From the NCBI GenBank assembly GCA_040905145.1, contig JBBDSC010000217.1:6935-70934 (forward strand): a stretch of 64,000 nt of DNA, in the 5' to 3' direction. Below are positions 1,482-23,030 of this stretch, one piece after another. Source of the stretch: Anditalea sp. GTDB taxonomy: Bacteria > Bacteroidota > Bacteroidia > Cytophagales > Cyclobacteriaceae. Position numbers and translations under genes: made by a program. A model generated the notes under the pieces. It made no database searches. It was not told the origin of the DNA and saw only the letters and a list, made by a program, of their open reading frames with translations. Position 1 is the first letter of the stretch, and each line of letters opens with the position of its first letter.

Positions 1482-4400
1482 ATGCCCAAAAGTGGAAAAA
1501 AGAACACCAAAAGATCACTTAAAACTTTTGGTATAATATTGATGGCTTTATGTGCATTTCAATGTACCCAACCTGATTCCAATGCACTAAAAATTGAAAA
1601 AGGCTCTCACATTGTCTTAATTGGGAACAACCTTGGATCAAGGATGATGAATTATGGTTATTTTGAAACCGAAATGCATCTCCGTTATCCAGACAGTTTG
1701 CTGTATATCAGAAATATGAGTGATGGGGGAAATACTCCGGGTTTCCGGCCCCATTCAGGCCGAAACTCCCCCTGGGCTTTTCCAGGTGCGGAAAATTTTC
1801 AGACGGAACTTGCTACAAATTCAGGCAGTATAGGTCATTTTGAAACCCCCGACGAATGGCTTACCCGACTTGAGGCTGATGTTATCATCGCTTTTTTTGG
1901 ATATAATGAATCTTTTCAAGGACCAGAGGGGCTCAAAAACTACAAGGGAGAGCTTGATGCTTTTATCCAACATACTTTAAGCCAAAGCTACAATGGGGAT
2001 ACCGCATCAGTTCAACTGGCAGTGGTCTCCCCCATCGCCTTTGAGAACCTTTCCGATCAGTATGATCTTCCAAATGGCCAACAGGAAAATGAAAACCTGG
2101 CGCTTTATACAGAGGCTATGAAAGAAATAGCGGCCAAAAACGACGTGCTCTTTGTTGATGCCTTTAACCCTTCCAAAGAATGGTATGAATCCAGTGACGA
2201 ACCCTTGACCATCGATGGTTTTCAGCTCAATGATGAAGGCTATGCTAAATTTTCTACCTTATTGACCAATCAGATTTTTGGTAAATCAAAGATCAAGGCA
2301 GAAGAACATCGCGAGTTGGTCCATGCTGCTGTCCTTGAAAAAAATTGGATGTGGCACAATGATTATAAAATACCAAATGGTGTTCACGTCTTCGGCCGGC
2401 GCTATGACCCTTTCGGACCAGATAATTATCCTGCTGAAATTAAAAAAATCCGTGAAATGACCGCAATCAGAGACGAAGCAATCTGGCGTGCGGTCAAAGG
2501 GGAGAAAATGGATATCCGCTCTGAGGATCAAAAAACAACTCAGCTTCCCCCTGTAGATACCAATTATAAACTTGATGAAAAAAGCGGTCCTCCGGAGTAC
2601 CTGTATGGAGAAGAAGCTCTTGATCAAATTAATGTCGCTCCAGGATATAAAATTGAACTTTTTGCTTCTGAAGAAGAATTTACCGATTTGGCAAATCCTG
2701 TTCAGTTATCCTTTGATAATAAAGGTCGCCTCTGGGTAGCGACCATGCCAAGCTATCCTCATTATAGACCCGGTGACGAGAAACCCAATGATAAACTGAT
2801 CATCCTTGAAGATACAGATGGCGATGGTAAAGCTGACAAACAAACCACTTTTGCTGATGGCCTTCATCTTCCTGTGGGGTTTGAGCTCGCACCGGAAGGG
2901 GTTTATATTTCTCAGGGGACTAACCTGAAACTTTATAAGGATACGGACGGTGATGATAAGGCTGATACCAATGAAATCCTTTTAAGTGGTTTTGACGATC
3001 ATGACACCCACCATGCGCACAGTGCCTATACCGCGGATCCTTCGGGGGCCATTTATATGGGCGAGGGGGTTTTCCTACATACCAACGTGGAAACTCCTTA
3101 TGGTCCAGTCCGTGCTACCAATGGAGGTTTTTACCGCTATAATCCGCAACGACATCATCTTGAACGAACCGCCCAGCTTTCCATCCCCAATCCCTGGGGC
3201 ATCGCATTTGATGAATGGGGGCAGAATTTCTTTGCGGAAACTTCCGGTCCGGATGTTCGCTGGATGATGCCCGGATCTGTTAAATCAAGGTATGGTGTGG
3301 CCACCCATAAATCAACGAACTTAATTGAAGATAAGCATAGAGTACGTCCTACTTCTGGCCTTGAGTTTGTCTCCAGCCGTCATTTTCCGGATGATGTGCA
3401 AGGGGATTTGCTTATCAACAACACCATAGGCTTTTTAGGGACCAAGCAACACACGATGGTAGACGATGGGATCGGTTATGAAAGTAAACACCGCCAAGAC
3501 CTGGTGAAGGGAGATGACAAAAACTTCCGCCCGGTAGACATGGAATTTGCCCCTGACGGCTCCCTTTATATCGTTGATTGGCACAATGTGCTGATCGGCC
3601 ATATGCAACACAATGCCAGGGACCCGCTCCGCGACCACGTACACGGTCGCATTTACCGCATCACTTATCCATCCCGTCCATTGGTTGAACCCGCTAAAGT
3701 GGACGGTGCAAGCATAGAAGAGCTTTTGGACAATCTCAAGCTTCCGGAATTCAGGACCCGTTACCGCACGCGTCGAGAACTTCGTGGCCGGGATGCATCG
3801 GAAGTGCTTTCCCATATTACGACATGGGTGGCCAATCTGGACAAGAACGATCCTAAATATGAACACCACTTGACAGAGGCATTATGGGTGAGCTGGGGGC
3901 TTAACCAAGTAGACGAATCATTGCTCCGTCAGGTGCTGAATGCCAAAGATTATCACGCCAGGGCCGCTGCCGCTCGGGTGTTGCGCTATACAGGTCATCA
4001 GGTAGCCGATCAGGCGGATTTATTGATGCAGGCAGCCAAGGATGATCATGGCCGGGTACGCTTGGAAGCATTGGTGGCCGCCTCTTGGCTGGATCCGGAA
4101 AAGGGCCTGCCCATTGTCATCGAAGCCGGTAAAAAACCAATGGATGAATGGATGGTCCATGCCCATGAAACAGCGCTGGCACATCTTAATGGACATGCAG
4201 TGGGAGAGGAAAAAGCAGGGTTAGTCGAGACCGAACTTAAAGGACCTGAACGTGACCTTTTTGTCGATGGAAAAGAAATATACGCCCGGGATGGGTACTG
4301 TATTACCTGCCATCAACCTGATGGTAAAGGGCTTGTAGCATCCGGTTTCCCTCCGCTCAACGGTACAGTGTGGGTAGAGGGAAATGAGGAACGGCTGATC

Positions 4401-4661
4401 AAGCTTACCTTAAAAGGTCTCTTGGGTCCCATTGAAGTATTGGGTGAAGAATATCCCGGACAAGTTCCCATGACTCCTTTTGGAGGCTTGCTCAATGACG
4501 ATGAAATGGCAGCTGTTCTGACTTATGTGCGCAATTCATTTGGCAACAAGGCTTCTGTCATTTCTCCTGAAAAAGTAAAAGAAGTACGTGCCGCTATTAA
4601 AGATAAAACGGGATTTTATTCTCCTGAAGAGCTGCTGAAAGAGCATCCCCTTGAGGAGTAA
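1482..4661 (+). CDS. PVC-type heme-binding CxxCH protein (SGNH-like N-terminus, membrane-bound-dehydrogenase-type beta-propeller, HEAT region, C-terminal cytochrome c)
   Basis: 1059 aa with a leader ending in Cys. DTDGDGKAD and DTDGDDKAD propeller loops are present. The C-terminal c-type heme motif CITCH is followed by a Met-containing segment (VPMTPF). Confidence 0.8.
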   Translation: MPKSGKKNTKRSLKTFGIILMALCAFQCTQPDSNALKIEKGSHIVLIGNNLGSRMMNYGYFETEMHLRYPDSLLYIRNMSDGGNTPGFRPHSGRNSPWAFPGAENFQTELATNSGSIGHFETPDEWLTRLEADVIIAFFGYNESFQGPEGLKNYKGELDAFIQHTLSQSYNGDTASVQLAVVSPIAFENLSDQYDLPNGQQENENLALYTEAMKEIAAKNDVLFVDAFNPSKEWYESSDEPLTIDGFQLNDEGYAKFSTLLTNQIFGKSKIKAEEHRELVHAAVLEKNWMWHNDYKIPNGVHVFGRRYDPFGPDNYPAEIKKIREMTAIRDEAIWRAVKGEKMDIRSEDQKTTQLPPVDTNYKLDEKSGPPEYLYGEEALDQINVAPGYKIELFASEEEFTDLANPVQLSFDNKGRLWVATMPSYPHYRPGDEKPNDKLIILEDTDGDGKADKQTTFADGLHLPVGFELAPEGVYISQGTNLKLYKDTDGDDKADTNEILLSGFDDHDTHHAHSAYTADPSGAIYMGEGVFLHTNVETPYGPVRATNGGFYRYNPQRHHLERTAQLSIPNPWGIAFDEWGQNFFAETSGPDVRWMMPGSVKSRYGVATHKSTNLIEDKHRVRPTSGLEFVSSRHFPDDVQGDLLINNTIGFLGTKQHTMVDDGIGYESKHRQDLVKGDDKNFRPVDMEFAPDGSLYIVDWHNVLIGHMQHNARDPLRDHVHGRIYRITYPSRPLVEPAKVDGASIEELLDNLKLPEFRTRYRTRRELRGRDASEVLSHITTWVANLDKNDPKYEHHLTEALWVSWGLNQVDESLLRQVLNAKDYHARAAAARVLRYTGHQVADQADLLMQAAKDDHGRVRLEALVAASWLDPEKGLPIVIEAGKKPMDEWMVHAHETALAHLNGHAVGEEKAGLVETELKGPERDLFVDGKEIYARDGYCITCHQPDGKGLVASGFPPLNGTVWVEGNEERLIKLTLKGLLGPIEVLGEEYPGQVPMTPFGGLLNDDEMAAVLTYVRNSFGNKASVISPEKVKEVRAAIKDKTGFYSPEELLKEHPLEE

Positions 4662-5246: not shown

Positions 5247-8200
5247 CTACTTAGCAACTTCTTTGGGCAGTTTGTTGAATTGCCGCTGAAAGCACTTGGC
5301 AAAATAGGAAGGAGAACTGAATCCTACCATCTCACTGACTTCCGTTATATTATACTGTCCTTTATGAAGCAATTCAGCTGCCCTTTTCAGCCTTACCAGC
5401 TTAATATAGCCATTGGGTGTAAGCTCTGAGATACCCTTGATTTTTCGGAGCAGGCTGGACTGGCTCATATTCATGGCTTCGGCAAGTTCGCTGACGCCAA
5501 ACAATTCGTTGGACATGTTTTCCAATATGATGTTATTTGCCTCTTGCAGAAACTGTTCATCCGCCTGCGTATGGGCAATGATATCAGCATTGACCAAAGG
5601 TTGGCTCGCAAAGGCTTTTCTGATCTGATCCCGGTAATGGAGCAGATTCTTTACCTGAAGGCTGAGATATTCCATCGAAAATGGCTTTTCAATATACACA
5701 TCAGCTCCCATTTCAAGCCCCTCTAGTTTTGATTGCAAGGTGCTTTTTGCTGTCAATAAAATGATTGGAATATGGCTGTAATTGATATCGGATTTAATGG
5801 CTTTGCACAAATGAAACCCGTCCATCACAGGCATCATCACATCACTGATGACCAAGTCAATGGGCTTTTCATCCAGGATCTTCAAACCTTGTTCCCCGTT
5901 CTCGGCTTTGTGAACATGATAATGGGATTTAAACTGGCGATGAAGGAATTTTTGAAGTTCATTATTGTCCTCTATTAGCAAAAGTGCAGGTTTGCTGGTT
6001 TCTAAGTTCTCTTTTCCTGTAGGCATTGCCCCATAAGTTTCCTCTTCTTCTGGGAAAGTTCCGATAATTTGTATAACATTTTTTTGCTGGAGGGGCAGTT
6101 CCAACACAAAGGTGTTCAGCTCTTCTCCAGAACAGTCTTCCAGATATAGATTTCCATTATGCATCTCAGCAAGGGAAAGTGCCAGGGGGAGTCCCAGCCC
6201 TGTTCCCGTATTGGGCCTGTCATTGCCGTTTCCGTCAATTTGAAAGAAGGGTTCAAAAATTTTGTCCCTAAATGAGGGTTCTATTATTCTGCCGTCATTA
6301 CTTACGGTGATTTTGAATTTTTTATCCCTGATCGTACCGGCGGTCAGGTTTATCTGGACGATGCTTTCGGCATTCTTGATGGCATTGGAAAAGAGGTTGC
6401 TGAGTATTTTGGTCAAGGCTTCCCGGTCCACATCGGCGAAAAACGGATCAATATTCTTATGGAGGAAAAAATTAATGGATTGCTGGTTGGCACTGCTTTT
6501 AAACCGGATATATATTTCATCCATTAAATGGCCAATTTCTGTCCTTACAAAATTAAGGGAGAAGCCTTTTTTCTCTGTTTTTCTAAAATCCAACAATTGA
6601 TTGCTCAAATCAATTAACCTGTTGGTATTCTTGTTCATTGTCCAAAGGTTTTCCTTAAGTTCTTGGTCGTATGAATTCTCTTTCTTGAGCAAATATTCCA
6701 ATGGGCTTTTGATCAAGGTCAGGGGCGTCCTTATTTCATGGGTAATATTTGTGAAAAAAGCGATTTTAGATTCATAGATTTCTTTTTCCTTTTCGTCTTC
6801 AAATGATTTGAGTGCCAATTCGTGCTTTTTGTTGATCCGCTTATTATAAGCATTGATGATAGTATAGCTACCCAAGACAAAGAGTAGGGTATAGAGAGCA
6901 TATGCCCAGTTTGTTTTCCAGAAAGGGGGCAGAACAGTAATGTCCAATGTAGCTTCCTTGGTGCTCCAATCACCAAAAACATTGGCGACTTTGACCCTTA
7001 ATTGATATTCACCGGGAGGCAGGTGGGAATAATGGATTCTTTGATTTTGGTCCATATAGGTCCAGTCCCTGTCAAATCCTTCCATTTTAAAGGCGTAGGA
7101 AAGGGAATTGGGGGCGGTATAGCTCAATGCTGCAAAATCAAAATTCAGTGAAGTCTGATCATGGGCCAAATTGATTTGCTGGGTGTTGATAATGGACCGA
7201 TTCAAAATCGGCTTGCTCCCGCCTATTTGAACAGGATCATTGGATACCTGTATCCCAGTAAAAACAATAGGCGGTTCAAAATGGTATGATTTGAAATGGG
7301 CGGGATTAAAGGAAATAAAACCACCCAAAGTGCCAAAGTAGAGGGTGCCGTCATCCGCCGCTATCCCTGATTTATAATTAAAAGGACTGTTGATCAGTCC
7401 ACTATCTTTGGTAAAAATACGGTATTCTTCGGTAGTAGGGTTGAATTCTAAAAGCCCCTTACTGCATGACATCCATAATTGGCCGGAGGAATCCTCTAGG
7501 ATTTTGTAGATTTTGTTGGCGGGAAAACCGTTTTTGGTGTTGTAGCAACGGAATGAATCACTTTGTTGATCATACCTACAAAACCCCCCGCCTTCTGTCG
7601 AAACCCAGATCCTGTCCTGGCTGTCCTCATACAGGCTGATGATAGAATGGTGGGAAAGACTGCCTGGATTTTGGGGATCAGGTTCAAAATACCTGGCTTT
7701 ATGGCTGGATGGATCAAATTTTACCAGTCCGTTATACCGGGTACCCAGCCATAGATCTCCCGCTTGGTCTTCAATGATGTCATGGACAAACACATGACCG
7801 ACCTCCTCTATCAAGTCAGAGGTACCGGATCGGGGATCATAAAGAAAAAGTTCATCAACGGTTCCCAACCATATCTGGTCCCTGCGGTCCACCAGAATGG
7901 AAAAAATATCGCTGTCCTGGAAATTACCTTCCTTATCCACTATTTTATGTTCTTCAATCCATCTATTGTCGGTGTTCAGAATATTAATTCCCTGGCTCCA
8001 TACGCCAATCAGCAGTTCATTTTTATTCATGGCCAAGCCATGGATATTATGATAGGAAATACTTCCTGGCTGTCCTGTAGGTTGATAGGGTGTAAATGTT
8101 GTTGTTTTAGGGTCAAAGTGGTTCAATCCTGCATCCTCAGTTCCTATCCACAGTGTTCCATCATCTCCTTGGACAAATTCCCTTACCCTTTTTCCACTAA

Positions 8201-9287
8201 TGGTATTGGCATTGGTAATGGGGTAATACTTTTCGAATTTGATAGGCTGATTGGGAAGGAAATTAATCCCGCCAAAATAAGTGCCTAACCAAATCCCTCC
8301 CTCCCGGTCCTGTTCGATCACATAGAGGGCATTGTCGGCAAGTGAAAAGGGGTCATTGTTATTGTGTTTTAAATTCTGGAATTCCCCTGTTTTCAAATCG
8401 TAAATAAACAGCCCGGATTCGGTGGTGATCCAAAGCTCATTTTCTTTAATGAATTGAAAATCCCTCACATAGATTTCGTTGCCTTCCTTGTCCCTGTTCA
8501 GCAGGTCCTTGAATTTTCCCGTGGACTTGTCCATGCTCTTGAGGCCGGCACTCTTGGTTCCGATCAATATGGAGGGTCCATTATCGAGAAGCCCGAAAAC
8601 ATATTCTTTTCTCAACAATTCTTCCTCATCCAAATATTCCACAAAACTCTCCGAACCTTCAATAAATTTATGTACCCCTTGCCCTACAACCCCGACCCAT
8701 ATTTGTCCTTCGTGATCCACCATGACACTGGAAATATATCCCGGCGAGAGGCTTCCTTCCCTGTTGTTGTTATGGGTAAATTGTTTTAATTCCTGCTTGG
8801 CGCCATTAAACCTGAACAGTCCGTTGATGTTTTCGGCAATCCAGATATTCCCTTCGAGATCTTTTTTGATGTCCGAAATAGATCCATTTATCTGTGATCC
8901 TTTATCCGAAAGTGATTGAAACCTGGTGAATTTTTCGGTTGCCGTGTCGTAAATGTACACTCCCTCTGAGGTGCCCACCCATATACGGCCTTCATTGTCT
9001 TCGCACAATTCATAGATTAAATTGTTGCCGAGGCCGTTTTCGATTTCCGACTCGGTATTGAAGACCTTGAAAGTATGCCCGTCATACCTGTTGAGGCCGT
9101 TTTTTGTCCCAAACCACATAAAACCCTCTCGGTCTTGTAAAATGGAAAAAACAGTGTTGTCTGATAACCCTTCCTTCATGTCCAGATTTTCAAAGTAAAG
9201 GTTTTGGTCAGCACCCCTTGCAGCAAATAACGCGGAAACAAAAAAAATCAATGTGCAAAAGTATTTTATGGCATTCAATGGCTTCAT
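5247..9287 (-). CDS. Hybrid two-component system regulator (beta-propeller/Y_Y_Y sensor, histidine kinase, receiver, AraC-type HTH)
   Basis: 1346 aa. Visible elements are the H-box HEIRTPLT, the receiver DLVISDVMMPVMDG and the C-terminal AraC HTH (SPSYFAKCFQRQF). The long N-terminal region carries repeated W.GT motifs. Confidence 0.9.
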   Translation of the reverse strand: MKPLNAIKYFCTLIFFVSALFAARGADQNLYFENLDMKEGLSDNTVFSILQDREGFMWFGTKNGLNRYDGHTFKVFNTESEIENGLGNNLIYELCEDNEGRIWVGTSEGVYIYDTATEKFTRFQSLSDKGSQINGSISDIKKDLEGNIWIAENINGLFRFNGAKQELKQFTHNNNREGSLSPGYISSVMVDHEGQIWVGVVGQGVHKFIEGSESFVEYLDEEELLRKEYVFGLLDNGPSILIGTKSAGLKSMDKSTGKFKDLLNRDKEGNEIYVRDFQFIKENELWITTESGLFIYDLKTGEFQNLKHNNNDPFSLADNALYVIEQDREGGIWLGTYFGGINFLPNQPIKFEKYYPITNANTISGKRVREFVQGDDGTLWIGTEDAGLNHFDPKTTTFTPYQPTGQPGSISYHNIHGLAMNKNELLIGVWSQGINILNTDNRWIEEHKIVDKEGNFQDSDIFSILVDRRDQIWLGTVDELFLYDPRSGTSDLIEEVGHVFVHDIIEDQAGDLWLGTRYNGLVKFDPSSHKARYFEPDPQNPGSLSHHSIISLYEDSQDRIWVSTEGGGFCRYDQQSDSFRCYNTKNGFPANKIYKILEDSSGQLWMSCSKGLLEFNPTTEEYRIFTKDSGLINSPFNYKSGIAADDGTLYFGTLGGFISFNPAHFKSYHFEPPIVFTGIQVSNDPVQIGGSKPILNRSIINTQQINLAHDQTSLNFDFAALSYTAPNSLSYAFKMEGFDRDWTYMDQNQRIHYSHLPPGEYQLRVKVANVFGDWSTKEATLDITVLPPFWKTNWAYALYTLLFVLGSYTIINAYNKRINKKHELALKSFEDEKEKEIYESKIAFFTNITHEIRTPLTLIKSPLEYLLKKENSYDQELKENLWTMNKNTNRLIDLSNQLLDFRKTEKKGFSLNFVRTEIGHLMDEIYIRFKSSANQQSINFFLHKNIDPFFADVDREALTKILSNLFSNAIKNAESIVQINLTAGTIRDKKFKITVSNDGRIIEPSFRDKIFEPFFQIDGNGNDRPNTGTGLGLPLALSLAEMHNGNLYLEDCSGEELNTFVLELPLQQKNVIQIIGTFPEEEETYGAMPTGKENLETSKPALLLIEDNNELQKFLHRQFKSHYHVHKAENGEQGLKILDEKPIDLVISDVMMPVMDGFHLCKAIKSDINYSHIPIILLTAKSTLQSKLEGLEMGADVYIEKPFSMEYLSLQVKNLLHYRDQIRKAFASQPLVNADIIAHTQADEQFLQEANNIILENMSNELFGVSELAEAMNMSQSSLLRKIKGISELTPNGYIKLVRLKRAAELLHKGQYNITEVSEMVGFSSPSYFAKCFQRQFNKLPKEVAK

Positions 9288-9626
9288 TCGTATTGTAATT
9301 TATGTTGGCCCGCTCCTTAATATGATTGGGTTATGAAGCGATTGATCTGGCCCTATTAATCAGTATGCTAATATGCATCATGGTAAGCTGTAAAAATAGT
9401 CAGTTTCTCCTTTCTTTAATATTTAAATGTTTTTCTAAATAAAAAAGGACGGATTTTTATCCTTTTATGAAGGAAATATGATAAGCTATTGAACCATTGC
9501 CGGCTATTTTTACAAAAATGACTTACTGTCCCTTTGGAGAAAAAGAAGCGAGGTTGATTATTCTTTCGAAATCTTGTTAATAGCTAGCATAAAATAAAAA
9601 TTAACCTAATCCTAAAAATGACATGA

Positions 9627-10049
9627 GAAAAAATTTGGCCGGATCCCAATGCCATTGGCAACGAGCACGGAAACGATGAGCCTGAAATCAGATATGCCGA
9701 TATATTATTATCCAGAGCAGAGGCCTTGAATGAACTGAACGGGCCCAACCAAGAGTCTATAGACTTGATCAATCAGGTTAGATTGCGGGCTGGACTATCA
9801 TCAGAATTATTGGCTGTAGGGGATTTTAGTACTAAGGAAGCACTTAGAGAACATTTATTGAATGAGAGAGCTTGGGAGTTTTACGGCGAAGTAGGCATTC
9901 GAAGAGAAGATCAGATCAGGATGGGGACTTTTATCTCTTCGGCAATAGAAAGAGGACATACCAATGCCCAACCATTTAGGGTAGTTTTCCCTATTCCCCA
10001 GGCAGCGATAGATGCAGACCCAAATCTGGTACAGAATGAAAATTATTAA
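9627..10049 (+). pseudogene. SusD/RagB C-terminal remnant (about the last 140 codons only)
   Basis: The frame opens just after a TGA at 9624-9626 and has no ATG. It reads ..RYADILLSRAEALNELNG..ERAWEFYGE..FPIPQAAIDADPNLVQNENY. There is no SusC upstream. Confidence 0.75.
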
Positions 10050-10100
10050 TTAACTTCTTTTATTAAATAATCTCATGAAAAAAGAATCGATTGTAAAGGG

Positions 10101-11639
10101 TTGGCAGCCTTGGTGGCCATGGCATTTTATTCAGGATGTACAAGTCCGGAAGCCAAAACCTCCCAAAAAGAGGATCAAAGGCCTAATATCATCTTAATTA
10201 TGGCAGATGATTTGGGCTTTTCTGACCTAGGCTGCTATGGCAGCGAAATCAACACGCCCAATATTGATTATTTGGCCACCAATGGTGTAAGATTTTCAAG
10301 TTTTTATAATCCCTCCAGGTGTTGCCCTACAAGAGCCTCATTGCTCACGGGTTTGTATAATCACCAGGCTGGAATAGGGGAGATGACAAGTGACCGGGAA
10401 GTTCCCGGTTACCGTGGACACCTGACTGAAAATGCCGTCACCATTGCAGAGGTATTAAAGGACGCCGGATACCGCACAGGCATGGTGGGAAAATGGCATG
10501 TTTCAAATACCTTGGTGCAGGATGATCCGGAGGAACAGCTGGACTGGCTGAACCACCAGACAGAGCATCCCCTTTTTTCTCCGGTGGAACAATATCCCAC
10601 CAACAGGGGATTTGAGAAATATTTTGGGAATATCTGGGGAGTGGTAGATTTTTTTGATCCTTTCAGCTTGGTTAACGGAACTGCCCCGGTCAAAACTGTC
10701 CCCAAAGATTATTACCATACAGATGCCATCAGTGACACTACGGTAGCCTATATTAAGGAATTCAGTAAAACGGATAAACCGTTTTTCCTATATGTGGCGC
10801 AGACTGCTCCCCATTGGCCGTTGCATGCCTTGCCGGAAGATATTGAAAAATACATAGACACCTACAAAGTAGGCTGGGACAGCATCCGGGAAAAAAGATA
10901 CGGGAAATTAGTAGAGATGGGCATGATTGATCCTGAAAAGGGTTCTTTGTCTCCCCGTATCGATGATGAACTTTCATGGGAAGAGAATCCTGACAAGGAA
11001 TGGGATGCCAGGGCTATGGCTGTCCATGCGGCTATGATAGATAGGATGGATCAGGGTATAGGTAAAATGATTACGGCTTTACGAGAAAGCGGCCAGTTAG
11101 AAAATACACTGATCTTATTCTTGAGCGATAATGGCGCCAGCCCTGAAGATGCTTCACGCTTTGGTCCGGGCTTTGACAGACCCAGTGAAACCAGGGATGG
11201 GCAGCAGATTATTTATCCGGTGGAAAAAAATGCTTTACCGGGACCGCAAAACACTTTTGCCTCCATAGGATCCAGGTGGGCCAATGTATCCAATACGCCT
11301 TTTCGGTATGCCAAAGCCCAATCCTATGAAGGAGGTATCCGTACGCCATTTGTGGCTTTCTGGCCAAAAGGCATTACTGTGGATAAAGGTGAAATTTTAG
11401 ATCAGGAAGGTCATGTAATGGATTTCATGGCCACCTTTACCGAGCTTGCAAATGCAACTTATCCTACTGAGTATAACGGCAGACAGATAACTCCCATGCA
11501 GGGAATCAGTTTAGTGCCAGCCTTTGAAGGCAAGGAGAGGAAAATTCATAACTCCCTGTTTAACGAACATTTCGGTGCACAGTATGTTCGCCATGAGGGT
11601 TGGAAACTGGTGGCCAGGAATAATGAGAAATGGTATTAA
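10101..11639 (+). CDS. Arylsulfatase (formylglycine-dependent sulfatase family), probably damaged at both ends
   Basis: The CCPTRASLLTG (CxPxR) motif and LFLSDNGA are present. ATG at 10075 is out of frame by 1 nt. An in-frame TAA at 11637-11639 is followed by 28 more sulfatase-like codons ending at 11726. Confidence 0.85.
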   Translation: MAALVAMAFYSGCTSPEAKTSQKEDQRPNIILIMADDLGFSDLGCYGSEINTPNIDYLATNGVRFSSFYNPSRCCPTRASLLTGLYNHQAGIGEMTSDREVPGYRGHLTENAVTIAEVLKDAGYRTGMVGKWHVSNTLVQDDPEEQLDWLNHQTEHPLFSPVEQYPTNRGFEKYFGNIWGVVDFFDPFSLVNGTAPVKTVPKDYYHTDAISDTTVAYIKEFSKTDKPFFLYVAQTAPHWPLHALPEDIEKYIDTYKVGWDSIREKRYGKLVEMGMIDPEKGSLSPRIDDELSWEENPDKEWDARAMAVHAAMIDRMDQGIGKMITALRESGQLENTLILFLSDNGASPEDASRFGPGFDRPSETRDGQQIIYPVEKNALPGPQNTFASIGSRWANVSNTPFRYAKAQSYEGGIRTPFVAFWPKGITVDKGEILDQEGHVMDFMATFTELANATYPTEYNGRQITPMQGISLVPAFEGKERKIHNSLFNEHFGAQYVRHEGWKLVARNNEKWY

Positions 11640-11726
11640 TATCCCGATAAAGTAAAGGAGCTGGAGGGGATGTGGCAAACCTGGGCCAAGAATAATAATG
11701 TATTGCCTAAACCAAAAGGAAAATGA

Positions 11727-11866
11727 CGTAGTCCCTGCTTGTCCTTTAAGATAGCAAAAGCCGTGTTATCGGATAATCCTTCTTTCATATCCAAATGTTT
11801 AAAATAAAGGCTAATGATCTGTCCTAAAAATCAATTTTAAACAGAATTTTGGAGGAATTTTTTCAT
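11727..11866 (-). pseudogene. N-terminal remnant (about 45 codons, frameshifted) of a second hybrid two-component regulator
   Basis: The minus strand reads ATG(11866) MKKFLQNSV* and then, after a frame shift, LYFKHLDMKEGLSDNTAFAILKDKQG. The intact HTCS at 5247-9287 has LYFENLDMKEGLSDNTVFSILQDREG. Similarity stops at about 11727. Confidence 0.6.
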
Positions 11867-12002
11867 TTTATGATGGATTTGTGACAGGTAGTTGAAGGAT
11901 TTTTCGGTTAGTTTGTTTCCACAATCGGTTGCGTAACTTATTGAATGATAAAAAGTTGAGATATAAAAATTGAATTAATCAACAGTAAACCAATCCAAAA
12001 TT

Positions 12003-15000
12003 ATGAAATTAAAATTACGAAAGACAATTTACATGATGGGCAGATATTTTCTGTTCGGAATTGTAATACAAATGTTGGCCTTCAACTTTGTATTGGCAGA
12101 ACATGACAATGGTCAAGATGAATCCATTGATGCAGTTCTGGTAAAAGTTTTCCGAGGATCCACATTCCAACGCAACTTTTCCAATAGTGCTGAAAATCCA
12201 TCCAAATCAGGTTCTTTGGAGAATTTTTTAGTTGAAGCTTCCCAACCACCTGTTTTTGATTTGACCAAAGCTAACAATGGTGTTGATGCCAATACAAAGG
12301 CAAGTGAAGAACAAATAACCAGGGATGATGACGCTGATATTATTGTAACGGGACAAGTTTTGGATGAGAAGGGAGAACCCCTGCCAGGGGCTACGATTAC
12401 GGTGGATGGAGCTCCTACAATAATAGGGACTGTCACGGATATCGATGGAAATTATTCCATTACGGTACCGGAAGATGCAGTCTTGGATTTTTCATTTATC
12501 GGATTTGAGTCCCTTCTTGTTCCAGTGGATAACCGTTCCCAGATAAACGTTACACTTTCCGTAGATATGTCTTCCTTGGATGAAGTTGTTGTCGTGGGGT
12601 ATGGTACTCAAAAGAGACAATCACTGACAGGGGCTATATCTTCAATTTCAAGTGAAGATATAGGTCGGGTACGAGGTGGGGCCACGGTAAGTTCCGGTTT
12701 AGCTGGAAAATTGCCAGGCGTCTCGTTTCGAATGCCAGATGGACGTCCTGGTGCAGCAGCCAGGGTGCAGATCCGAAATATGGGAGATCCCTTGTTTGTG
12801 ATTGATGGAATTCAACAGGAGGTACAGCAATTTAACAATCTAAACCCCACTGACATAGAAAGTATAACCATATTAAAAGATGGATCCGCCGCCATCTATG
12901 GGGTACGGGCCGCTAATGGTGTAGTATTAGTAACTACAAAAAAAGGATCAAGAGGTGATAAAAACACAATCAATATAAACGCCTATCAAGGTTTCCAAAA
13001 CTGGACAAAGTTCATGGATGTGACCAATAATTCTTATGACTGGGCCATGGAAAAAGTTCAGGCAGATATGAATGGTTTTGGTACAACCAACATAACAAAA
13101 GAAGATTTGGAGAAATATAAATTGGGAATTGAGCCAGGGTATCAGAGTTTTAATTGGAAAGATTTTATTATAAAAAAGAATGCCCCTATATCTCAAATTG
13201 ATATCAATGCATCAGGAGGGTCAGAAAAAATCAATTACTACATTTCTGGAAGCCATTTAAAACAATCCTCTGTTTTAGGCCGTGAATTCACTTTTGGTAG
13301 AACGAACCTGATAAGCAATATTGATGTCGATATAAGTGAACGTTTAAAAGTGGGGATTGGAATAAATGGGTATATGGAAGAGCGATTGAATCCCGGTATT
13401 CCAGGGGGCGATGACTATTGGTTGCCCCGATATGCCATCTTGCGGAATACTCCTTGGGAACGTCCCTATGCAAATGACAATCCCCTATACCTGAACGATA
13501 TCAAGCACAACGAAACCAACTGGGCTTATAATAATTTCAAGTATGGAGGTTATAAAAGGGAAAATAAAAAATATTTGCAAACTAATTTTACTGGCGAATA
13601 TCAGTTCGACTTCCTGGAAGGTCTTTCAGCCAGAGGAATGTATTCTTATGGAATTGAGGATGTACTGATGGATGGCCATGAATATACCTATGAAACATAT
13701 ACTTATTATCCAGCCACCGGAGAAACTCCTGAGGAATACCGGGTTACTGGTGGAAGTACCAACCCTTGGCGAGAGCGGGAAACCCGAAAAATAGAAAAGA
13801 ACAACTCACAGCTTGGTCTTAACTATAGTAATATTTTTGGTGATCATGAGATCGGTGCATTGTTTCTTGCCGAACGTTATGAAACTAGAGCTCGTCGAGT
13901 ATGGGTACATGCAGTACCGGCTACCAACATCCTTCCTTTATTGTATTTCAATACCATGGACAGGTATGATGACAGTGATTTTGAAGAAGCTAGAATAGGA
14001 TACATTACCCGAATAAATTACAATTTTGACAATAAATATTACTTAGAAATATCAGGGAGACGAGATGCTTCCTGGAAATTTTCACCTGACCAAAGGGTAG
14101 GGTATTTTCCTTCCGCTTCAGTGGGATGGAGAATTTCAAAAGAGGATTTCATGGAATCTATAGTGAGCGGAAACATCTTGAATGATTTAAAATTACGTGC
14201 TTCCTACGGGATTTTGGGTGATGACAATATTGGTATTGACCCATATGATTATCTTGCCGGTTACACTTATAACCAAGGCACTGGGATTTTGGATCGTACA
14301 CCTATTATCGGAACCAGAGATAAAGGCCAGCCTATTACCAATATTACCTGGTTAACCAGTAAAATATTGGATATAGGTGCTGATTTCAGCTTATTTAATG
14401 GAAAAGTTAACGGTAGTGTGGACTATTTTAACCGGAAACGGACTGGATTAAGAGGGCGAAAATACGATATAGTGGTACCGAATGAATTAGGCTACAACCT
14501 CCCTGATGAAAATGTCAATAGTGACAAACAATTTGGTGGTGAAGCATCTCTTTCCTATGCAGGAAATGTCGGTGATTTCACCTATAGCATCGGCGGAAAT
14601 CTGAGCTATGCACGTAGTAAATTCCTTTCCTCCTACAATCCAATCTTTTTTAACTCCTGGGATCAGTACCGCAATTCAGCCGAGGATAGATTTCAAAATC
14701 TAAGTTGGGGATATAAGGTTATTGGGCAGTTTTCTTCACAGGATGAAATAAACAATTATCCTGTCAATGTAGATGGACAAGGTAATAAAAGCTTACTTCC
14801 AGGAGATCTGATTTATGAAGATTTAAATGGCGATAAAATAATTGATGATTATGATCAGAGGCCTATAGGCTATGGAACAAACCTTCCTGTAGTAAACGGG
14901 GGTTTAAATTTTGTCTTTGGATGGAAAAATTTTGATTTTGCCATGGATTTTTCATTAGCCTCCATGTATTCCTTTACAGCTGATAATGAGTTAAGAAGAG

Positions 15001-15395
15001 CATTTCGTGCCAATGGGGGGAATATGGCAGAACACCTAAGAGATGCATGGCACAGGGAGGACCCTTTCGACTTGAACAGTAACTGGATACCGGGAACTTT
15101 TCCCCCAAACAGGTTTAATCAGGGAGGGCTAAGTTCAGTCAATAAAACCTCTGACTTTTGGATGCACAATGTTACCATCTTTAGGGCAAGGACGATACAA
15201 TTGGGTTATTCATTGCCTGTGTCGATCATTAATAGGGTAAAAATCCAACAGGCAAGGGTTTTTGTAAATGGATATAATTTATTCTTTTTTGATAATTTAA
15301 AAGATTATCCCATTGATCCTGAGGTTACTGATACCAACGGATTGCAATATCCACAAAATAGAATAATTAATATAGGTGTTGGTTTAACGCTTTAA
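12003..15395 (+). CDS. SusC/RagA-family TonB-dependent outer-membrane transporter
   Basis: 1130 aa. A CarboxypepD_reg-like segment (VTGQVLDEKGEPLPGATITV), the plug region DEVVVVGYGTQKRQSLTGAIS and a long barrel are visible. An N-terminal extension of about 110 aa precedes them. Confidence 0.9.
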   Translation: MKLKLRKTIYMMGRYFLFGIVIQMLAFNFVLAEHDNGQDESIDAVLVKVFRGSTFQRNFSNSAENPSKSGSLENFLVEASQPPVFDLTKANNGVDANTKASEEQITRDDDADIIVTGQVLDEKGEPLPGATITVDGAPTIIGTVTDIDGNYSITVPEDAVLDFSFIGFESLLVPVDNRSQINVTLSVDMSSLDEVVVVGYGTQKRQSLTGAISSISSEDIGRVRGGATVSSGLAGKLPGVSFRMPDGRPGAAARVQIRNMGDPLFVIDGIQQEVQQFNNLNPTDIESITILKDGSAAIYGVRAANGVVLVTTKKGSRGDKNTININAYQGFQNWTKFMDVTNNSYDWAMEKVQADMNGFGTTNITKEDLEKYKLGIEPGYQSFNWKDFIIKKNAPISQIDINASGGSEKINYYISGSHLKQSSVLGREFTFGRTNLISNIDVDISERLKVGIGINGYMEERLNPGIPGGDDYWLPRYAILRNTPWERPYANDNPLYLNDIKHNETNWAYNNFKYGGYKRENKKYLQTNFTGEYQFDFLEGLSARGMYSYGIEDVLMDGHEYTYETYTYYPATGETPEEYRVTGGSTNPWRERETRKIEKNNSQLGLNYSNIFGDHEIGALFLAERYETRARRVWVHAVPATNILPLLYFNTMDRYDDSDFEEARIGYITRINYNFDNKYYLEISGRRDASWKFSPDQRVGYFPSASVGWRISKEDFMESIVSGNILNDLKLRASYGILGDDNIGIDPYDYLAGYTYNQGTGILDRTPIIGTRDKGQPITNITWLTSKILDIGADFSLFNGKVNGSVDYFNRKRTGLRGRKYDIVVPNELGYNLPDENVNSDKQFGGEASLSYAGNVGDFTYSIGGNLSYARSKFLSSYNPIFFNSWDQYRNSAEDRFQNLSWGYKVIGQFSSQDEINNYPVNVDGQGNKSLLPGDLIYEDLNGDKIIDDYDQRPIGYGTNLPVVNGGLNFVFGWKNFDFAMDFSLASMYSFTADNELRRAFRANGGNMAEHLRDAWHREDPFDLNSNWIPGTFPPNRFNQGGLSSVNKTSDFWMHNVTIFRARTIQLGYSLPVSIINRVKIQQARVFVNGYNLFFFDNLKDYPIDPEVTDTNGLQYPQNRIINIGVGLTL

Positions 15396-15414
15396 GTATT
15401 TTAAATTTTAAGAC

Positions 15415-17325
15415 ATGCAAAAATTATATTACATATTAATCGCAATACTATTGGGTTTCAGTTGGGGGTGTGAATCTGATGAAGAGTTTATGAACAAACC
15501 ACCCAATCAGATTCTAACCGTGGAACAGGCATTTTCTGATCCTGCTCAGGTATTATCCATTTTAGCAAATTTATATTCCCGCCAATTTTCTTATTACAGG
15601 CTAAATGACTGGGCGACTTTTGGGGATTTCAATGAAGCTTTTTATGCACATACCCAAGGCGTCACCAATGAATTCCATACCAATACCACCTGGCCTTTTG
15701 GAGGAATAAGAAATTTTTGGACCACTTGGGATTATACTTATATAAGAGAACTCAATCTGTTTCTTGAGAGAATAGAAACTTCCTCGATTACCGAAGATCT
15801 AAAAACCAGGTATGCTGCTGAAGCCAAGTATTTACGTGCGGCCTATTATCTTGAACTCGCCCAATTCTACGGTGGGGTTCCCATAATTTTAGAATCCCAG
15901 AGCTATGATTTTAGCGGAGACCCCTCTTATCTTCAAATCCCAAGATCAACAGAGGCTGAAATCTATGACTTTATCATTGAGGAAGCCGAATCCTTAAAGA
16001 CTATACTTCCTGCGGATGCCACCAGTAAATCAAGGGCTACCAAAGGTGCCGCCCTGGCTATGAAAGCAAGGGCTGCCATTTATGCAGCATCCCTTGCAAA
16101 ATATAATAATAGCATCACCCCTTCGGTATCTCTTTCTGGGGGTGAGGTAGGAATTCCAACAGGCAGGGCTGAGGAGTATTATAATACTGCTCTGGAAGCC
16201 TCCAAAGAAATAATAGAAGGAACGGCAGGTTCATATTCCTTATATATGAAGAACCCTACCAATCTTTCAGAAAATTTTGCCGCACTATTCTATGATAAGA
16301 ATGCGAATCCTGAGGTCATTTTTGCTGACGATTATCTATTAAAATATAGGACTCATTATTTTACCGGAGCAAATCAACCTCGTTTTGGTGCGGAGGAAGA
16401 AGAAGGGGGTGCACTCAATCCAAGTCTCAACCTGGTTCAGGAATTTGAATTGCTGGACAATACCTTTGCCCCTATTCCAACTACCGATGAAAACGGTGAT
16501 CCTATTTATTATGAATCTCAACTGGATATATTTGCAAATCGGGATGCCAGGCTGGCAGGAACCGTTATATTGCCAGGATCAAATTTTAAGTCAAGACCTG
16601 TTGATATATGGGCAGGTTATCAGTTGGCCAATGGCACGGTGATCAGTGGAAATGACAGAGGTGACCAAAGGATATTGCCGGGGAAAACTATTGAGCAACA
16701 GGTTGTGGGATTTGATGGACCTGTTGAAGGGGCAGTACAGAATGCTCAAATGGGTTTCTATCTTCGGAAATATGTGGATCCTGCACCCGGCTCAGGTCAG
16801 CGAGGTATTCAAAGCGAAATTTGGAAAATTAAGTACCGCTATTCTGAAATCCTGCTAATTGCCGCTGAAGCTGCTTTTGAATTGGGACAACCGGATATTT
16901 CAGCCAACTATCTAAATATGGTACGCGAGAGGGCTGGGTTTACTATTCCCCTAAAAGGATCAGATATATCCTTGGATAGGATCGTTCATGAACGCAGAGT
17001 GGAGTTTGCCTTTGAAGGTTTGTACTTTATGGATTTAAAACGTTTTAGAATCGCCCATAGAATTTTTGATGGGGTATCCATGACTAAGGAAAATTTACTT
17101 TCTGGAATAGGCAAGGCAACTAAAAGAAGCACTATGCCCTGGGGTTTATGGCCTTATAGGATTTATAATCCTGGGTCTGAAAACGATGGAAAGTGGATTT
17201 ATAAAGAATATTTGTCAAAGCAGGTGACTGGTGCTGACAATTGGCAATTAGGTAATTATTATAGTAACATCAGTAATGAAATACTAAATAACAATCCAAA
17301 ACTTGTAAGACAACCTCTTCAGTAA
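15415..17325 (+). CDS. SusD/RagB-family nutrient-binding lipoprotein
   Basis: The gene lies immediately downstream of SusC. It has a lipoprotein leader (LLGFSWGC) and the SusD-type C-terminal block ERRVEFAFEGLYFMDLKRF. Confidence 0.9.
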   Translation: MQKLYYILIAILLGFSWGCESDEEFMNKPPNQILTVEQAFSDPAQVLSILANLYSRQFSYYRLNDWATFGDFNEAFYAHTQGVTNEFHTNTTWPFGGIRNFWTTWDYTYIRELNLFLERIETSSITEDLKTRYAAEAKYLRAAYYLELAQFYGGVPIILESQSYDFSGDPSYLQIPRSTEAEIYDFIIEEAESLKTILPADATSKSRATKGAALAMKARAAIYAASLAKYNNSITPSVSLSGGEVGIPTGRAEEYYNTALEASKEIIEGTAGSYSLYMKNPTNLSENFAALFYDKNANPEVIFADDYLLKYRTHYFTGANQPRFGAEEEEGGALNPSLNLVQEFELLDNTFAPIPTTDENGDPIYYESQLDIFANRDARLAGTVILPGSNFKSRPVDIWAGYQLANGTVISGNDRGDQRILPGKTIEQQVVGFDGPVEGAVQNAQMGFYLRKYVDPAPGSGQRGIQSEIWKIKYRYSEILLIAAEAAFELGQPDISANYLNMVRERAGFTIPLKGSDISLDRIVHERRVEFAFEGLYFMDLKRFRIAHRIFDGVSMTKENLLSGIGKATKRSTMPWGLWPYRIYNPGSENDGKWIYKEYLSKQVTGADNWQLGNYYSNISNEILNNNPKLVRQPLQ

Positions 17326-17351
17326 TTATTGAATGATAAAATCGCAAAATA

Positions 17352-18053
17352 ATGAAAAATAAATTTAATTATATATTATTGTTCCTATTGGGTATTTCTT
17401 TCATGTCTTGTGAAAAGGATAATTATGAACCGCCAAAATCCCCTCTTACTGGAAGGGTTATTTACCAAGGAACGCCATTGTATTTACAACCGAATAGAGT
17501 AAGTTACGAGTTATTCCAAGATGGTTTTGGTAAGAGTGGTCCCATAAGCGGTACTTTTACGGCTGATGGTAATTACTCACAACTCCTTTTTAATGGGACT
17601 TATAAAATGATAATTCGGGAAGGACAAGGCCCATTTCTTTGGGGAGAGTCAGTGGATAACCTGAAGAGTGAAGAAATTATCCATGTCAATGGTGCTACAG
17701 AGATGGATATCGAGGTCCTACCTTATTGGATGATTATAAACCCTAACATATCATTTAGTGAAGGAAAAGTAACAGGAACATTTGGACTTGAGCAAATTAT
17801 TGACGGTGCTAATGCTAAAAGTATTGAAAGTGTAACGCTTTACCTAAGCAAAACCGTTTTTGCTAATTCTGACACCAATGTGGCTACTAATTCAATAGGA
17901 GGGAGTGACATTAGCGATTTCAGTAATATCAATCTGAGTGTTAATGTACCAACCTTAACACCTTCTCAAAATTATATATTTGCCAGTATAGGTGTAAAAA
18001 TAGTTGGAGTGGAAGATATGATTTTTTCTGAGGTTCAAAAAATCAATTTATAG
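17352..18053 (+). CDS. DUF3823-like surface lipoprotein (SusE/F-position accessory protein)
   Basis: The lipoprotein leader SFMSCEKDNYEPPKSPLTGRV is typical of DUF3823. The gene sits directly after SusD. Confidence 0.55.
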   Translation: MKNKFNYILLFLLGISFMSCEKDNYEPPKSPLTGRVIYQGTPLYLQPNRVSYELFQDGFGKSGPISGTFTADGNYSQLLFNGTYKMIIREGQGPFLWGESVDNLKSEEIIHVNGATEMDIEVLPYWMIINPNISFSEGKVTGTFGLEQIIDGANAKSIESVTLYLSKTVFANSDTNVATNSIGGSDISDFSNINLSVNVPTLTPSQNYIFASIGVKIVGVEDMIFSEVQKINL

Positions 18054-18141
18054 TTAAAATTTCAATCCGATATGCCGGTTTAAGTTAACTTCGGTTTTTT
18101 AACCCATGATTGATCATTATTAAAGTTTAAAGAGTGTTTTT

Positions 18142-21100: not shown

Positions 21101-21276
21101 TTGAGATAGACGGAGAAAAGGCGGCCCAAGCCAATGCCGCTTCCTTGTTTTCAAGTCCTCTTTCTCCAAGTGTAAGATCAGGTCAGGATTATGGAGAGAA
21201 TAACAATGTAGGGGATTATGAAGGTGAATTCGCTTTTAAAGGTTCCTATCAAAATCTTACCCTTGAATTGAAGTAA
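18142..21276 (+). CDS. ThuA-domain / membrane-bound-dehydrogenase-type beta-propeller / HEAT / LamG-like fusion lipoprotein
   Basis: 1044 aa. The N-terminal ThuA-like block includes GRIFYTAYGHNDSTW and NGIFWAMG. The propeller region (DTDGDGKAD, DTDGDDVAD) is paralogous to 1482-4661. No CxxCH motif is present. Confidence 0.75.
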   Translation: MKQAFILLILTGMLFHSCKDKLITTSGNLSENNDYQKGRRAELLFLGHASDHHPSRKYAPWLATSVFKSGINITYTENLEDLNPENLNKYDALVIYANHDYLAPEQESALKEFLDNGKGLIPLHSATGCFKNSDWYIQTIGGQFASHGTGEFMAEIIEASHPILDGVESFETWDETYVHKNINPDIKVLTERVENGHREPYTWIREEGNGRIFYTAYGHNDSTWTNPGFQKLVENGIFWAMGDKVQALVAALDIPEVDVYEEPISDFTKRYEVPKVQEPLEPEESKKLIQTPVDFDIQLFASEPDIVNPIAMAWDERGRLWIVESVDYPNTFKETDGLANDRIKICEDTDGDGKADKFTVFADNLNIPTSIAFANGGVIVSMAPDFLFMKDTDGDDVADVREVIMTGWGKYDTHAGPSNLQYGFDNKIWGVTGYSGFNGTINGKPMRFPQGVYHFDPDGKNFEYLASTSNNTWGLGFSEDNNVFISTANNTHAAYYSIPAKYLQRTLPEAAEGQPSPPYSIQPIQKIDGHYDAHAMTPNLRQVDVVGGFTSAAGIRLYTARDFPKEYWNRIAFVSEPTIRLTHNAILEPEGAGFVEKDGWNLLASSDEWFGPVQAEVGPDGAVWIADWYNFIIQHNVFVERQAPSRMVLPFTDQPHGQGNAFHSELRDTNHGRIYRVVYKNAKPYTPIQLSTNDPQGLLAALKNDNMFWRMTAQRLLVESGAQDVIPELYGIINDQQIDEIGLNSPAVHALWTLHGLGALDGSNQEALQVAIKALSHPADGVRKAAVEVLPENEQAIAAFQESGIIQDPNLNVRMHAFLSLATMPTSDAVGELLYGASMSPENAKDDWLSKALFAAAINHEESFLAASSKNGAASSPENGLNQRLVKAVGKEIYELGRRSTLQFSPEVAQKEIIIKASVSKRGNEDPEGFIVAQGGKENGYGLYIEDGKLNFVVNQNGKKYKAVTTKALPERYEFVAYLAKNGRMSIEIDGEKAAQANAASLFSSPLSPSVRSGQDYGENNNVGDYEGEFAFKGSYQNLTLELK

Positions 21277-21289
21277 ATAACTAAAAAGA

Positions 21290-21322
21290 AGACCTGTCAG
21301 GTTTTGAAAACCTGACAGGTCT
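21290..21322 (+). terminator. Perfect 16+1+16 palindrome after the 18142-21276 gene
   Basis: AGACCTGTCAGGTTTTGAAAACCTGACAGGTCT starts 14 nt after the stop codon. Confidence 0.6.
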
Positions 21323-21406
21323 ATAACTGGTATGAAAATTGAAAACCCCGTTATCAACTAAGCGAATATTTCCCTTACCTGAAATCAATAATCAAAATTT
21401 AGAGTC

Positions 21407-22006: not shown

Positions 22007-22011
22007 CAAAA

Positions 22012-22127: not shown

Positions 22128-22247
22128 CGTTCTTACCCTGAAGGGGTAAAAGATGAATAGCCCCGGGTGAAATGACTATGGACCATCAACTATGGACTCT
22201 CTGTTCTGCAGAATATAAATTAAACAATAACATCAATAAACTACCCT

Positions 22248-23012: not shown

Positions 23013-23030
23013 TTGATTCGTAGTTCCCCA

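Follow-up and report, generated by a model that had tools for sequence, protein, structure and literature searches.

Gene remnants between an HTCS regulator and a susC gene of Anditalea as probable traces of serial rearrangement at a sugar-uptake locus

On contig JBBDSC010000217.1 of an Anditalea genome (GCA_040905145.1), an intact regulator gene of the hybrid two-component system (HTCS) class, here HTCS1, and an intact gene for a TonB-dependent transporter, susC2, face away from each other across 2.7 kb of DNA (positions 9288-12002 of the 64,000-nt stretch analysed, which we call the window) that holds pieces of other genes. To which genes did these pieces belong, how did the interval come to hold them, and what controls the transporter today? 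The initial annotation of this DNA proposed that three remnants lie between the two intact genes, and that two deletions had collapsed two neighbouring polysaccharide utilization loci (PULs) into one. All three remnants are real and lie where they had been placed, but three junctions (J0, J1 and J2) were found in the place of two deletion scars. We hypothesize, with a probability of about 0.72, that the interval no longer has a function and is the debris of serial rearrangement, at a locus whose SusC/SusD cassettes and regulators are frequently exchanged.

The course of events that we propose starts from a Negadavirga-like PUL, with HTCS1 facing SusC1, SusD1 and a sulfatase, which would have lost ~4.1 kb and whose sulfatase would then have been inactivated twice. 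A second HTCS would have been cut down to its first ~45 codons and ~40-55 nt of upstream boxes, and the LacI gene present in the closest relatives would have been lost, a clipped operator marking this third joint. At an earlier step the SusC2 lineage would have lost its extracytoplasmic function (ECF) sigma/anti-sigma partners, and its STN domain would have drifted without constraint. The right operon, running from SusC2 to an AP_endonuc_2 gene, is intact and under strong purifying selection; it is probably still expressed, with HTCS1 as its most likely driver.

The sequences compared came from Negadavirga shengliensis (G066; locus on G066:C2), a congeneric metagenome-assembled genome (MAG; G004, with its locus on G004:C45, L117/L118), Catalinimonas (G156), Anditalea (G089), the metagenome contigs L109, L163, L113 and L114 (SusC2 identity 93% in L163, JGI Ga0079224_100292485, and 89% in L109, from run SRR11534413) and L102 (JGI Ga0210040_10004668), and the search for protein homologs spanned 5.8 billion proteins. 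Used as a DNA query in 30 relatives, the 2.7-kb interval returned weak sulfatase matches only and no DNA-level synteny. The genome under study is itself a MAG (4.9 Mb in 236 contigs), and one lesion of the sulfatase sits in a run of six A residues, both of which could suggest that the remnants are artefacts, produced by chimeric joins and, in the sulfatase, by homopolymer and stop errors. Against this, a contig that Logan assembled independently from run SRR27977661 agrees with the window at 100% of 19,862 nt, which begin within HTCS1, run past the right operon and take in every joint and lesion; this speaks strongly against the misassembly that the initial annotation had wanted to exclude. 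The joints are not flanked by repeats longer than 25 nt, and the pieces diverge from their relatives as true orthologs do (84% identity for the SusD piece, for example). An assembly artefact, or chance similarity, is a very unlikely source of the remnants.

The left unit and its remnants

HTCS1 (5247-9287, minus strand, 1346 aa) is intact, with the Reg_prop, Y_Y_Y, HisKA, HATPase_c, Response_reg and HTH_18/AraC domains all recognised by Pfam. Over its full length it is 54-59% identical to HTCSs of Negadavirga, Echinicola and Anditalea, no homolog in the protein search exceeding 59%, and its DNA-binding end is nearest to Echinicola HTCSs (70-73%). A chimeric origin of HTCS1, with a one-sided recombination joint, was considered and dropped, as sliding-window identity against five orthologs gave no clear breakpoint. 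Upstream of this gene, positions 9288-9626 show no coding similarity in any frame, to SusC and SusD included, and probably represent the former divergent control region between HTCS1 and susC1.

The first junction, J0, falls at ~9625-9633, and DNA homology to the susD of Negadavirga starts at 9635. From 9627 to 10049 (plus strand) runs an open stretch of 140 codons without stops or a start codon, preceded by an in-frame TGA. As had been stated, it is the last ~140 codons of a SusD gene (susD1) with no SusC before it: the piece matches positions 151-297 of the 297 positions of Pfam SusD_RagB (E 4.5e-25), that is, the C-terminal half only, and corresponds to residues 351-489 of the 489-aa SusD of Negadavirga at 84% amino-acid identity (74% identity over 426 nt of DNA). 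Its best paralog in its own genome is only 44% identical, and that genome contains neither a second copy of SusD1 nor a SusC1 ortholog (best match 38%). The left unit does not contain a full SusC next to a full SusD, as a complete PUL would.

The undeleted arrangement, which it had been suggested to seek by aligning relatives, was found in Negadavirga by a search across the whole family. There, an HTCS 59% identical to HTCS1 over 1338 residues is divergent from genes for a SusC (1022 aa), a SusD (489 aa) and a 566-aa sulfatase (74% identical), and the sulfatase is followed directly by genes for ThuA-DUF7133 (73%), a cupredoxin, ThuA, GFO/IDH (91%) and an AP_endonuc_2-type isomerase (78%). The orthologs from the HTCS and the SusD C-terminus to the sulfatase, ThuA-DUF7133 and GFO have the same order and orientation in Negadavirga and in the window. 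The two differ in that Negadavirga has its SusC and SusD complete and its redox genes straight after the sulfatase, whereas in the window the counterparts of these redox genes come after SusC2, SusD2 and a DUF3823 gene; Negadavirga also lacks a second SusC/SusD/DUF3823 cassette, an HTCS stub and a LacI operator. This synteny, together with the mapping of the junction and the absence of a SusC1 ortholog from the genome, gives good support to a deletion of ~4.1 kb that would have removed SusC1 and ~350 codons of SusD1 from the left unit, much as the initial annotation had proposed.

Both units are also found together in Catalinimonas, where SusC1, SusD1 and the sulfatase are followed by the regulators and genes of a SusC2-type PUL, so that their adjacency is not unique to the genome under study. 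The Catalinimonas arrangement spans the end and start of the chromosome (L052, L053 and L065), both of its PULs are under ECF sigma/FecR control, and an FG-GAP/ASPIC protein and a 510-aa protein are encoded between them. An FG-GAP/ASPIC protein also adjoins the SusC2-type loci in G054, G279, L110 and L112.

Downstream of the SusD fragment lies a sulfatase pseudogene (10075-11726, plus strand). Its main frame, open for 512 codons (10101-11639), matches PF00884 over profile positions 1-300 of 301 (E 4.1e-63) and keeps the S1 formylglycine sulfatase motif as CCPTRAS. At its beginning, a 1-nt indel in the A-run at 10078-10083 has shifted the ATG at 10075, with its MKK leader, by one base relative to the frame of the lipobox and the enzyme. 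Towards its end, an in-frame deletion of 48 nt has created a TAA at 11637-11639 (the joint reads TAT TAA, 11634-11639), so that in the alignment of homologs 18 conserved residues (HLYxINADETELNDLxxQ) are replaced by 'Y*' where the closest homologs read WHLYxINADETELNDLxxQYPDKV; the conserved last 28 residues (11640-11726) remain in frame beyond the TAA, up to the natural stop at 11724-11726. The 120 sulfatase homologs listed are all 521-595 aa long and all have SGSH_C, which in the window scores 23.5 bits, under the cut-off of 29.3. No intact frame extends from the signal peptide to the C-terminal subdomain, and to judge from its two lesions the sulfatase is dead, inactivated twice.

It might still be argued that the enzyme is functional, translated from a TTG at 10101 to 11639, and that the remnants are the SusD and HTCS pieces only. 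The long open frame, the Pfam sulfatase domain, the intact CCPTR motif and a lipobox cysteine downstream of the TTG would all agree with this. A start at the TTG, however, gives no positively charged n-region ahead of the lipobox, which is instead encoded in the displaced ATG-MKK leader; a conserved segment is gone and another lies past the stop, in a family whose listed members uniformly keep their length and their SGSH_C domain; and the transporter partners of the enzyme have been lost. We consider a functional sulfatase improbable. As pictures of the undeleted state, the loci of the nearest sulfatase homologs were rejected: these homologs (79-80% identity, with none above 80%) stand beside a formylglycine-generating enzyme (FGE) gene, GH127 or insertion sequence (IS) elements and are not syntenic with the window. 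L110/L111 were rejected as well, having another arrangement with no SusD upstream of the sulfatase. The closest sulfatase homolog (79%) is on L102, next to fragments of IS1- and DDE-type transposases and to a second sulfatase that is truncated.

The HTCS stub and a probable remnant of a LacI-type operator

The remaining remnant is a 5' stub of a second HTCS gene, ~45 codons on the minus strand (11732-11866), for which a block of 19 identical residues out of 26 shared with HTCS1 had been reported. This count proved exact, and the similarity is specific to the HTCS1 clade: positions 11812-11720 (minus strand) match HTCS1 residues 29-59 with 64.5% identity (E 6e-9), in the genome nothing but HTCS1 otherwise matches the stub significantly, the next best hit reaching 30% (E 0.36), so that the stub is not a generic Reg_prop or propeller motif. 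Its codons 10 and 12 are in-frame stops, and the core of the signal peptide, KFCLKLIF (the homolog of KYFCTLIF in HTCS1), is found in the +1 frame, from which at least two indels can be deduced. With only the equivalent of residues ~20-45 left, the stub has no Pfam match and none of the domains of an HTCS. The similarity to HTCS does end at the tail of the sulfatase, as had been observed, and J1 can be placed at 11727-11731, between the natural stop of the sulfatase and the last clear HTCS codon (Gly, 11732-11734).

Over a 78-nt motif, the stub has 21 differences from HTCS1 and 21 from the Negadavirga gene, HTCS1 and the Negadavirga gene have 19 between them, and the differences cluster at third codon positions. 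By this measure the parent of the stub belongs to a lineage of its own within the HTCS1 clade and was kept under purifying selection until recently; the stub is neither a recent copy of HTCS1 nor an ancient fossil. A tandem duplication of the HTCS1/SusC1 5' region as the source of the stub and of the SusC2 5' end was also rejected, because SusC2 has a signal peptide and extension of STN type and the divergence between the stub and HTCS1 amounts to 27%. The parent gene has lost at least 3.9 kb, and the island that survives between J1 and J2 measures ~175-190 nt, comprising the stub and ~40-55 nt of upstream DNA.

Was this second HTCS the regulator of SusC2? The initial annotation supposed that it was, and that a second deletion, of at least 4 kb, had struck the regulator of the right PUL. 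On this account two complete and adjacent HTCS-run PULs once stood here. The stub is indeed divergent from susC2 and only 136 nt from its ATG, boxes of the HTCS clade lie between the two, and Anditalea, three Echinicola genomes and contig L114 each have an HTCS of the HTCS1 clade facing a SusC-SusD-DUF3823 triad (that on L113 faces a short SusC at the end of the contig); the arrangement would be conceivable had an HTCS come to lie in between in this lineage. The closest relatives of SusC2, however, have a LacI gene or its operator at this place and no HTCS. In the congeneric MAG, a LacI-family gene (Pfam LacI and Peripla_BP) is followed by SusC-SusD-DUF3823, and in L163 a LacI gene 77.7% identical to it stands directly upstream of SusC2. 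The spacer between LacI and SusC in the former contains two copies, with 0 and 2 mismatches, of a 20-nt palindrome, TTACGCAACCGGTTGCGTAA; L109 and L163 have it ahead of SusC with 1 mismatch each, in identical form and with surrounding bases matching at 44 of 48 positions, and in L163 it lies 141 nt ahead of the susC2 ATG.

The window retains what appears to be a remnant of the same LacI-type palindromic operator, TTCCACAATCGGTTGCGTAA (11917-11936), which matches the palindrome of the relatives at 17 of 20 positions; the three mismatches all fall in its left half, which leaves the right half perfect. With up to 3 mismatches allowed, the palindrome has only five distinct sites across the 1.18 Mb of locus sequence retrieved, being confined to the places just named and to L102, and in the genome under study it is not enriched beyond chance. 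It was also found in 43 GTDB stretches from many phyla, a spread that marks it as a generic LacI-type operator. On L102 the same palindrome, as TTATGCAACCGGTTGCGTAA, lies at position 3913 upstream of a divergent GH125/GH97 operon. An impression by eye that homology to L163 continues to the left of the palindrome was rejected by a shuffle test (11727-11916 against the L163 spacer scores 10, with a shuffle mean of 11.1 ± 1.9). The clipped operator and the lack of homology to its left place a third joint, J2, near 11905-11923, and it is apparently this joint that clipped the operator. No LacI gene is present on the contig of the window; elsewhere in the genome there are four matches to the LacI helix-turn-helix domain, one of them on a broken 80-aa frame and the other three in full-length paralogs on contigs C37, C196 and C201, and no ortholog of the LacI of G004 and L163 (best 42-45%).

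These comparisons suggest that the LacI of the closest relatives was the true regulator of the right PUL and is gone from this locus, and that the stub is probably not the locus's own regulator. Thus, of the original claim, the truncation of a distinct HTCS stands, as does the deletion in the left PUL, but not the role of the stub as regulator of the right PUL. Two HTCS-run PULs side by side are an unlikely starting point also because the operator remnant still lies between the stub and susC2, with homology to the relatives ending at the operator, and because SusC2 falls in an STN/FecR-type clade (60-74% identity) and is 54% identical to HTCS-type SusCs.

The two LacI-run loci and the window appear to share a palindrome upstream of susC, and downstream the congeneric MAG is colinear with the window, with ThuA, GFO, AP_endonuc_2 and SASA genes 77-90% identical; the window differs from them in its missing LacI gene, in the degraded left half of its operator, and in the HTCS stub and HTCS-type boxes on the upstream side. 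In the congeneric MAG (G004:C45, 10143-20624), a tandem of SusC-SusD-DUF3823 and SusC'-SusD' lies between the LacI and ThuA genes, and the second SusC/SusD pair is followed by ThuA (77%), GFO (90%) and SASA (79%) genes. Cassette number and regulator type thus vary at the locus even within the genus.

The colinearity also bears on another history, in which the whole block left of ~11905 (HTCS1, the SusD fragment or a then-intact cassette, the sulfatase and the HTCS stub) was horizontally transferred into the genome and displaced LacI as it integrated illegitimately, so that J2 would be the integration joint and the second HTCS may have been truncated in the donor. Synteny with the congeneric MAG begins at the operator and susC and runs downstream, with nothing in common left of J2; the nearest sulfatase homologs adjoin IS elements in other contexts; and the stub is as distant from HTCS1 as the Negadavirga ortholog is. 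Against a transfer, neither mobile-element genes nor a tRNA, integrase or terminal repeats were found at the joints, and the interval shows no clear compositional break. J0 and J1 would still need deletions, that of J1 in some genome, so that the transfer would be a variant of the serial rearrangement proposed here and not an alternative to the scars. We regard it as possible but doubtful.

The right operon and its present control

The right unit is complete. SusC2 (12003-15395, plus strand, 1130 aa; Pfam Plug and CarboxypepD_reg) and SusD2 (15415-17325, plus strand, 636 aa; Pfam SusD-like_3 and SusD_RagB) form an intact pair, both full length against their orthologs in eight GTDB genomes and one Logan contig (60-74% identity for SusC2 and 69-81% for SusD2), and are followed by an intact DUF3823 gene (17352-18053, plus strand). 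The earlier history of this unit is recorded in the N-terminal extension of SusC2. In Bacteroides thetaiotaomicron, PULs with trans-envelope signalling through an ECF sigma factor, a FecR anti-sigma factor and an STN-bearing SusC have been validated (PMC2709373). The SusC2 clade is of the same build: a FecR-type anti-sigma gene lies directly upstream of the distant SusC2 orthologs in nine of nine cases, an ECF sigma gene is nearby in most, and an N-terminal STN domain is present in all eight GTDB orthologs aligned. SusC2 of the window has an extension at the same place (codons 33-112, 12099-12338, plus strand), but as a degenerate relic: ~30 STN residues are deleted, among them the most conserved, and residues 1-200 give no STN (PF07660) match at E<=1, against E 7.7e-11 for the ortholog in G054.

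Substitution rates were measured against L109 (synonymous divergence, dS, ~0.8-1) for four genes of the right operon. The proportion of non-synonymous differences (pN) in the SusC2 extension is 0.54, while the ratio of non-synonymous to synonymous rates (dN/dS) in the rest of SusC2 is 0.03. FecR and ECF sigma genes are absent from 9288-12002, and the best matches in the genome to the orthologous pair reach 38-40% and 30%. A degenerate, unconstrained STN and the lack of a cognate sigma/FecR pair in the genome suggest that trans-envelope signalling was lost long ago in this SusC2 lineage. Other, independent deletions in the same extension occur in L109 and L110, and in L163 the susC2 frame is split (1411-2342, as 1411-1761 and then 1740-2342 in another frame) and the extension almost wholly deleted, from which it appears that the STN relic is repeatedly being lost.

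The remainder of the right operon shows no sign of decay. Its eight consecutive genes, from 12003 to 25300 (~13 kb) and ending with a sugar-phosphate isomerase-like gene (Pfam AP_endonuc_2), are full length against their orthologs and contain zero lesions, where ~16 would be expected under neutrality at the density seen in the sulfatase (2 per 1.65 kb); dN/dS spans 0.03-0.10 in the four genes compared with L109, with 0.05 for SusD2 and 0.10 for DUF3823. By these measures the right operon is not decaying but under strong purifying selection, and something presumably still expresses it. The orphaned PUL that the initial annotation had entertained is therefore unlikely. Beyond the AP_endonuc_2 gene, a type II restriction-modification pair (25417-27217; Pfam N6_N4 methyltransferase and XcyI-type endonuclease) precedes the SASA esterase gene; these two genes are adjacent in the congeneric MAG, so the pair appears to have been inserted into the operon. 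On either side of the region a large DUF7133 propeller/HEAT protein is encoded (1482-4661 and 18142-21276), one with GDSL-lipase and cytochrome c modules and the other with a ThuA and LamG-like end, each ~27% identical to the orthologs of the other.

Which regulator might act on the right operon now? Candidate boxes upstream of HTCS1, GACGGATTT (9448-9456) and TTTTATGAAGGAAATATGA (9463-9481), start 21 nt apart on the plus strand, and the stub island holds a similar set, TTTTATGATGGATTTGTGA (11866-11884) and GAAGGATTT (11894-11902), also on the plus strand, GAAGGATTT starting 22 nt after the start of the first box. The motifs GATGGATTT and GAAGGATTT both lie in 11727-12002. TTTTATGATGGATTTGTGA is two mismatches from TTTAATGAAGGATTTGTGA, an element that each of the five Echinicola-type HTCS-SusC intergenic regions holds with 0-2 mismatches and in the same orientation, and positions 9433-9510 align locally with 11835-11914 at a score reached by 2 of 300 shuffles. 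The 19-nt element always holds a four-codon mini-ORF in the same register (9467-9481 and 11870-11884 in the window, with equivalents in L096, L098 and L113), which reads ATG AAG GAT TTG TGA in the Echinicola type and ATG ATG GAT TTG TGA (B) and ATG AAG GAA ATA TGA (A) in the two copies of the window; it may have arisen by chance, encode a leader peptide or belong to a binding site.

In B. thetaiotaomicron, HTCS operators were inferred to be direct repeats with a spacer, and the paralogous HTCS pairs BT4111/BT4124 and BT4178/BT4182 were inferred to share one motif and regulon (PMC3878776). The window resembles these pairs in having two HTCS paralogs at one locus and similar direct-repeat boxes upstream of both (21-22 nt start to start), and differs from them in that one paralog is dead; its shared motif is read from the sequence. 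Neither intergenic region contains an exact copy of the Bacteroidetes -7 motif TAnnTTTG, an Rfam scan gave no match, and a scan for sigma-70-type promoters came out below chance. There is no plus-strand terminator-like site in 9100-12300, so read-through from the former susC1 promoter is possible.

Since both control regions share boxes, it is plausible, and we tentatively propose, that HTCS1 drives the susC2 operon, either through the boxes 100-130 nt upstream of it or by such read-through. Constitutive expression, or control by some other factor, is a possibility to be taken seriously too; a LacI paralog acting on the residual operator seems unlikely, and silence of the operon more unlikely still. 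As for the history behind it, J2, whether a deletion or an integration, may have fused the boxes of the dead HTCS to a susC promoter that had formerly been repressed by LacI and earlier run by an ECF sigma/anti-sigma pair, with HTCS1 now in control, although we hold this fuller account to be rather doubtful.

Several observations weigh against our reading of the interval as serially rearranged wreckage with shared control boxes. The left unit was found in no relative closer than genus level, so the ancestral order had to be pieced together from other genera. It is conceivable that SusC1, and likewise LacI, were translocated to a contig left unbinned from this fragmented MAG and not lost. The L109 contig stops ~60 nt to the left of its palindrome, before either an HTCS or a LacI gene could come into view. 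The boxes are short, AT-rich sequences, the significance of their alignment is only modest at 2 in 300 shuffles, and the 19-nt element has 13 matches genome-wide (up to 3 mismatches) against 6 in the reversed control and was not found in Negadavirga (G066) or Anditalea (G089). We accordingly present the candidate boxes as a lead rather than a result.

Probable turnover of regulation at one susC gene

An automatic PUL caller would see at this locus an HTCS, a sulfatase and a SusC/SusD pair, and would return one tidy 'sulfated-glycan PUL under HTCS control'. Such an annotation would mislead, as the sulfatase appears to be dead, the HTCS was probably not the original partner of the transporter, and the cargo genes code for redox enzymes. 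Pseudogenised PUL genes, mosaic PULs and a variety of PUL regulator classes (HTCS, ECF sigma/anti-sigma, LacI and others) are already known; what this locus would add is an unusually legible example, in which ordinary genome decay has recorded a swap of control at a sugar-uptake locus.

Within one family, homologous SusC-SusD-DUF3823/ThuA loci are run by HTCS, by ECF sigma/anti-sigma pairs or by LacI, and in this genome apparent relics of all three regulator classes stand ahead of a single susC, making it a natural example of turnover in PUL regulation. If J2 did fuse the boxes of the dead HTCS to the susC2 promoter, one promoter region would record three successive replacements of a regulator, the last of them by deletion alone. 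And if HTCS1 does drive susC2, regulons may be rewired merely by deleting the DNA between the boxes of a regulator and the promoter of its neighbour.

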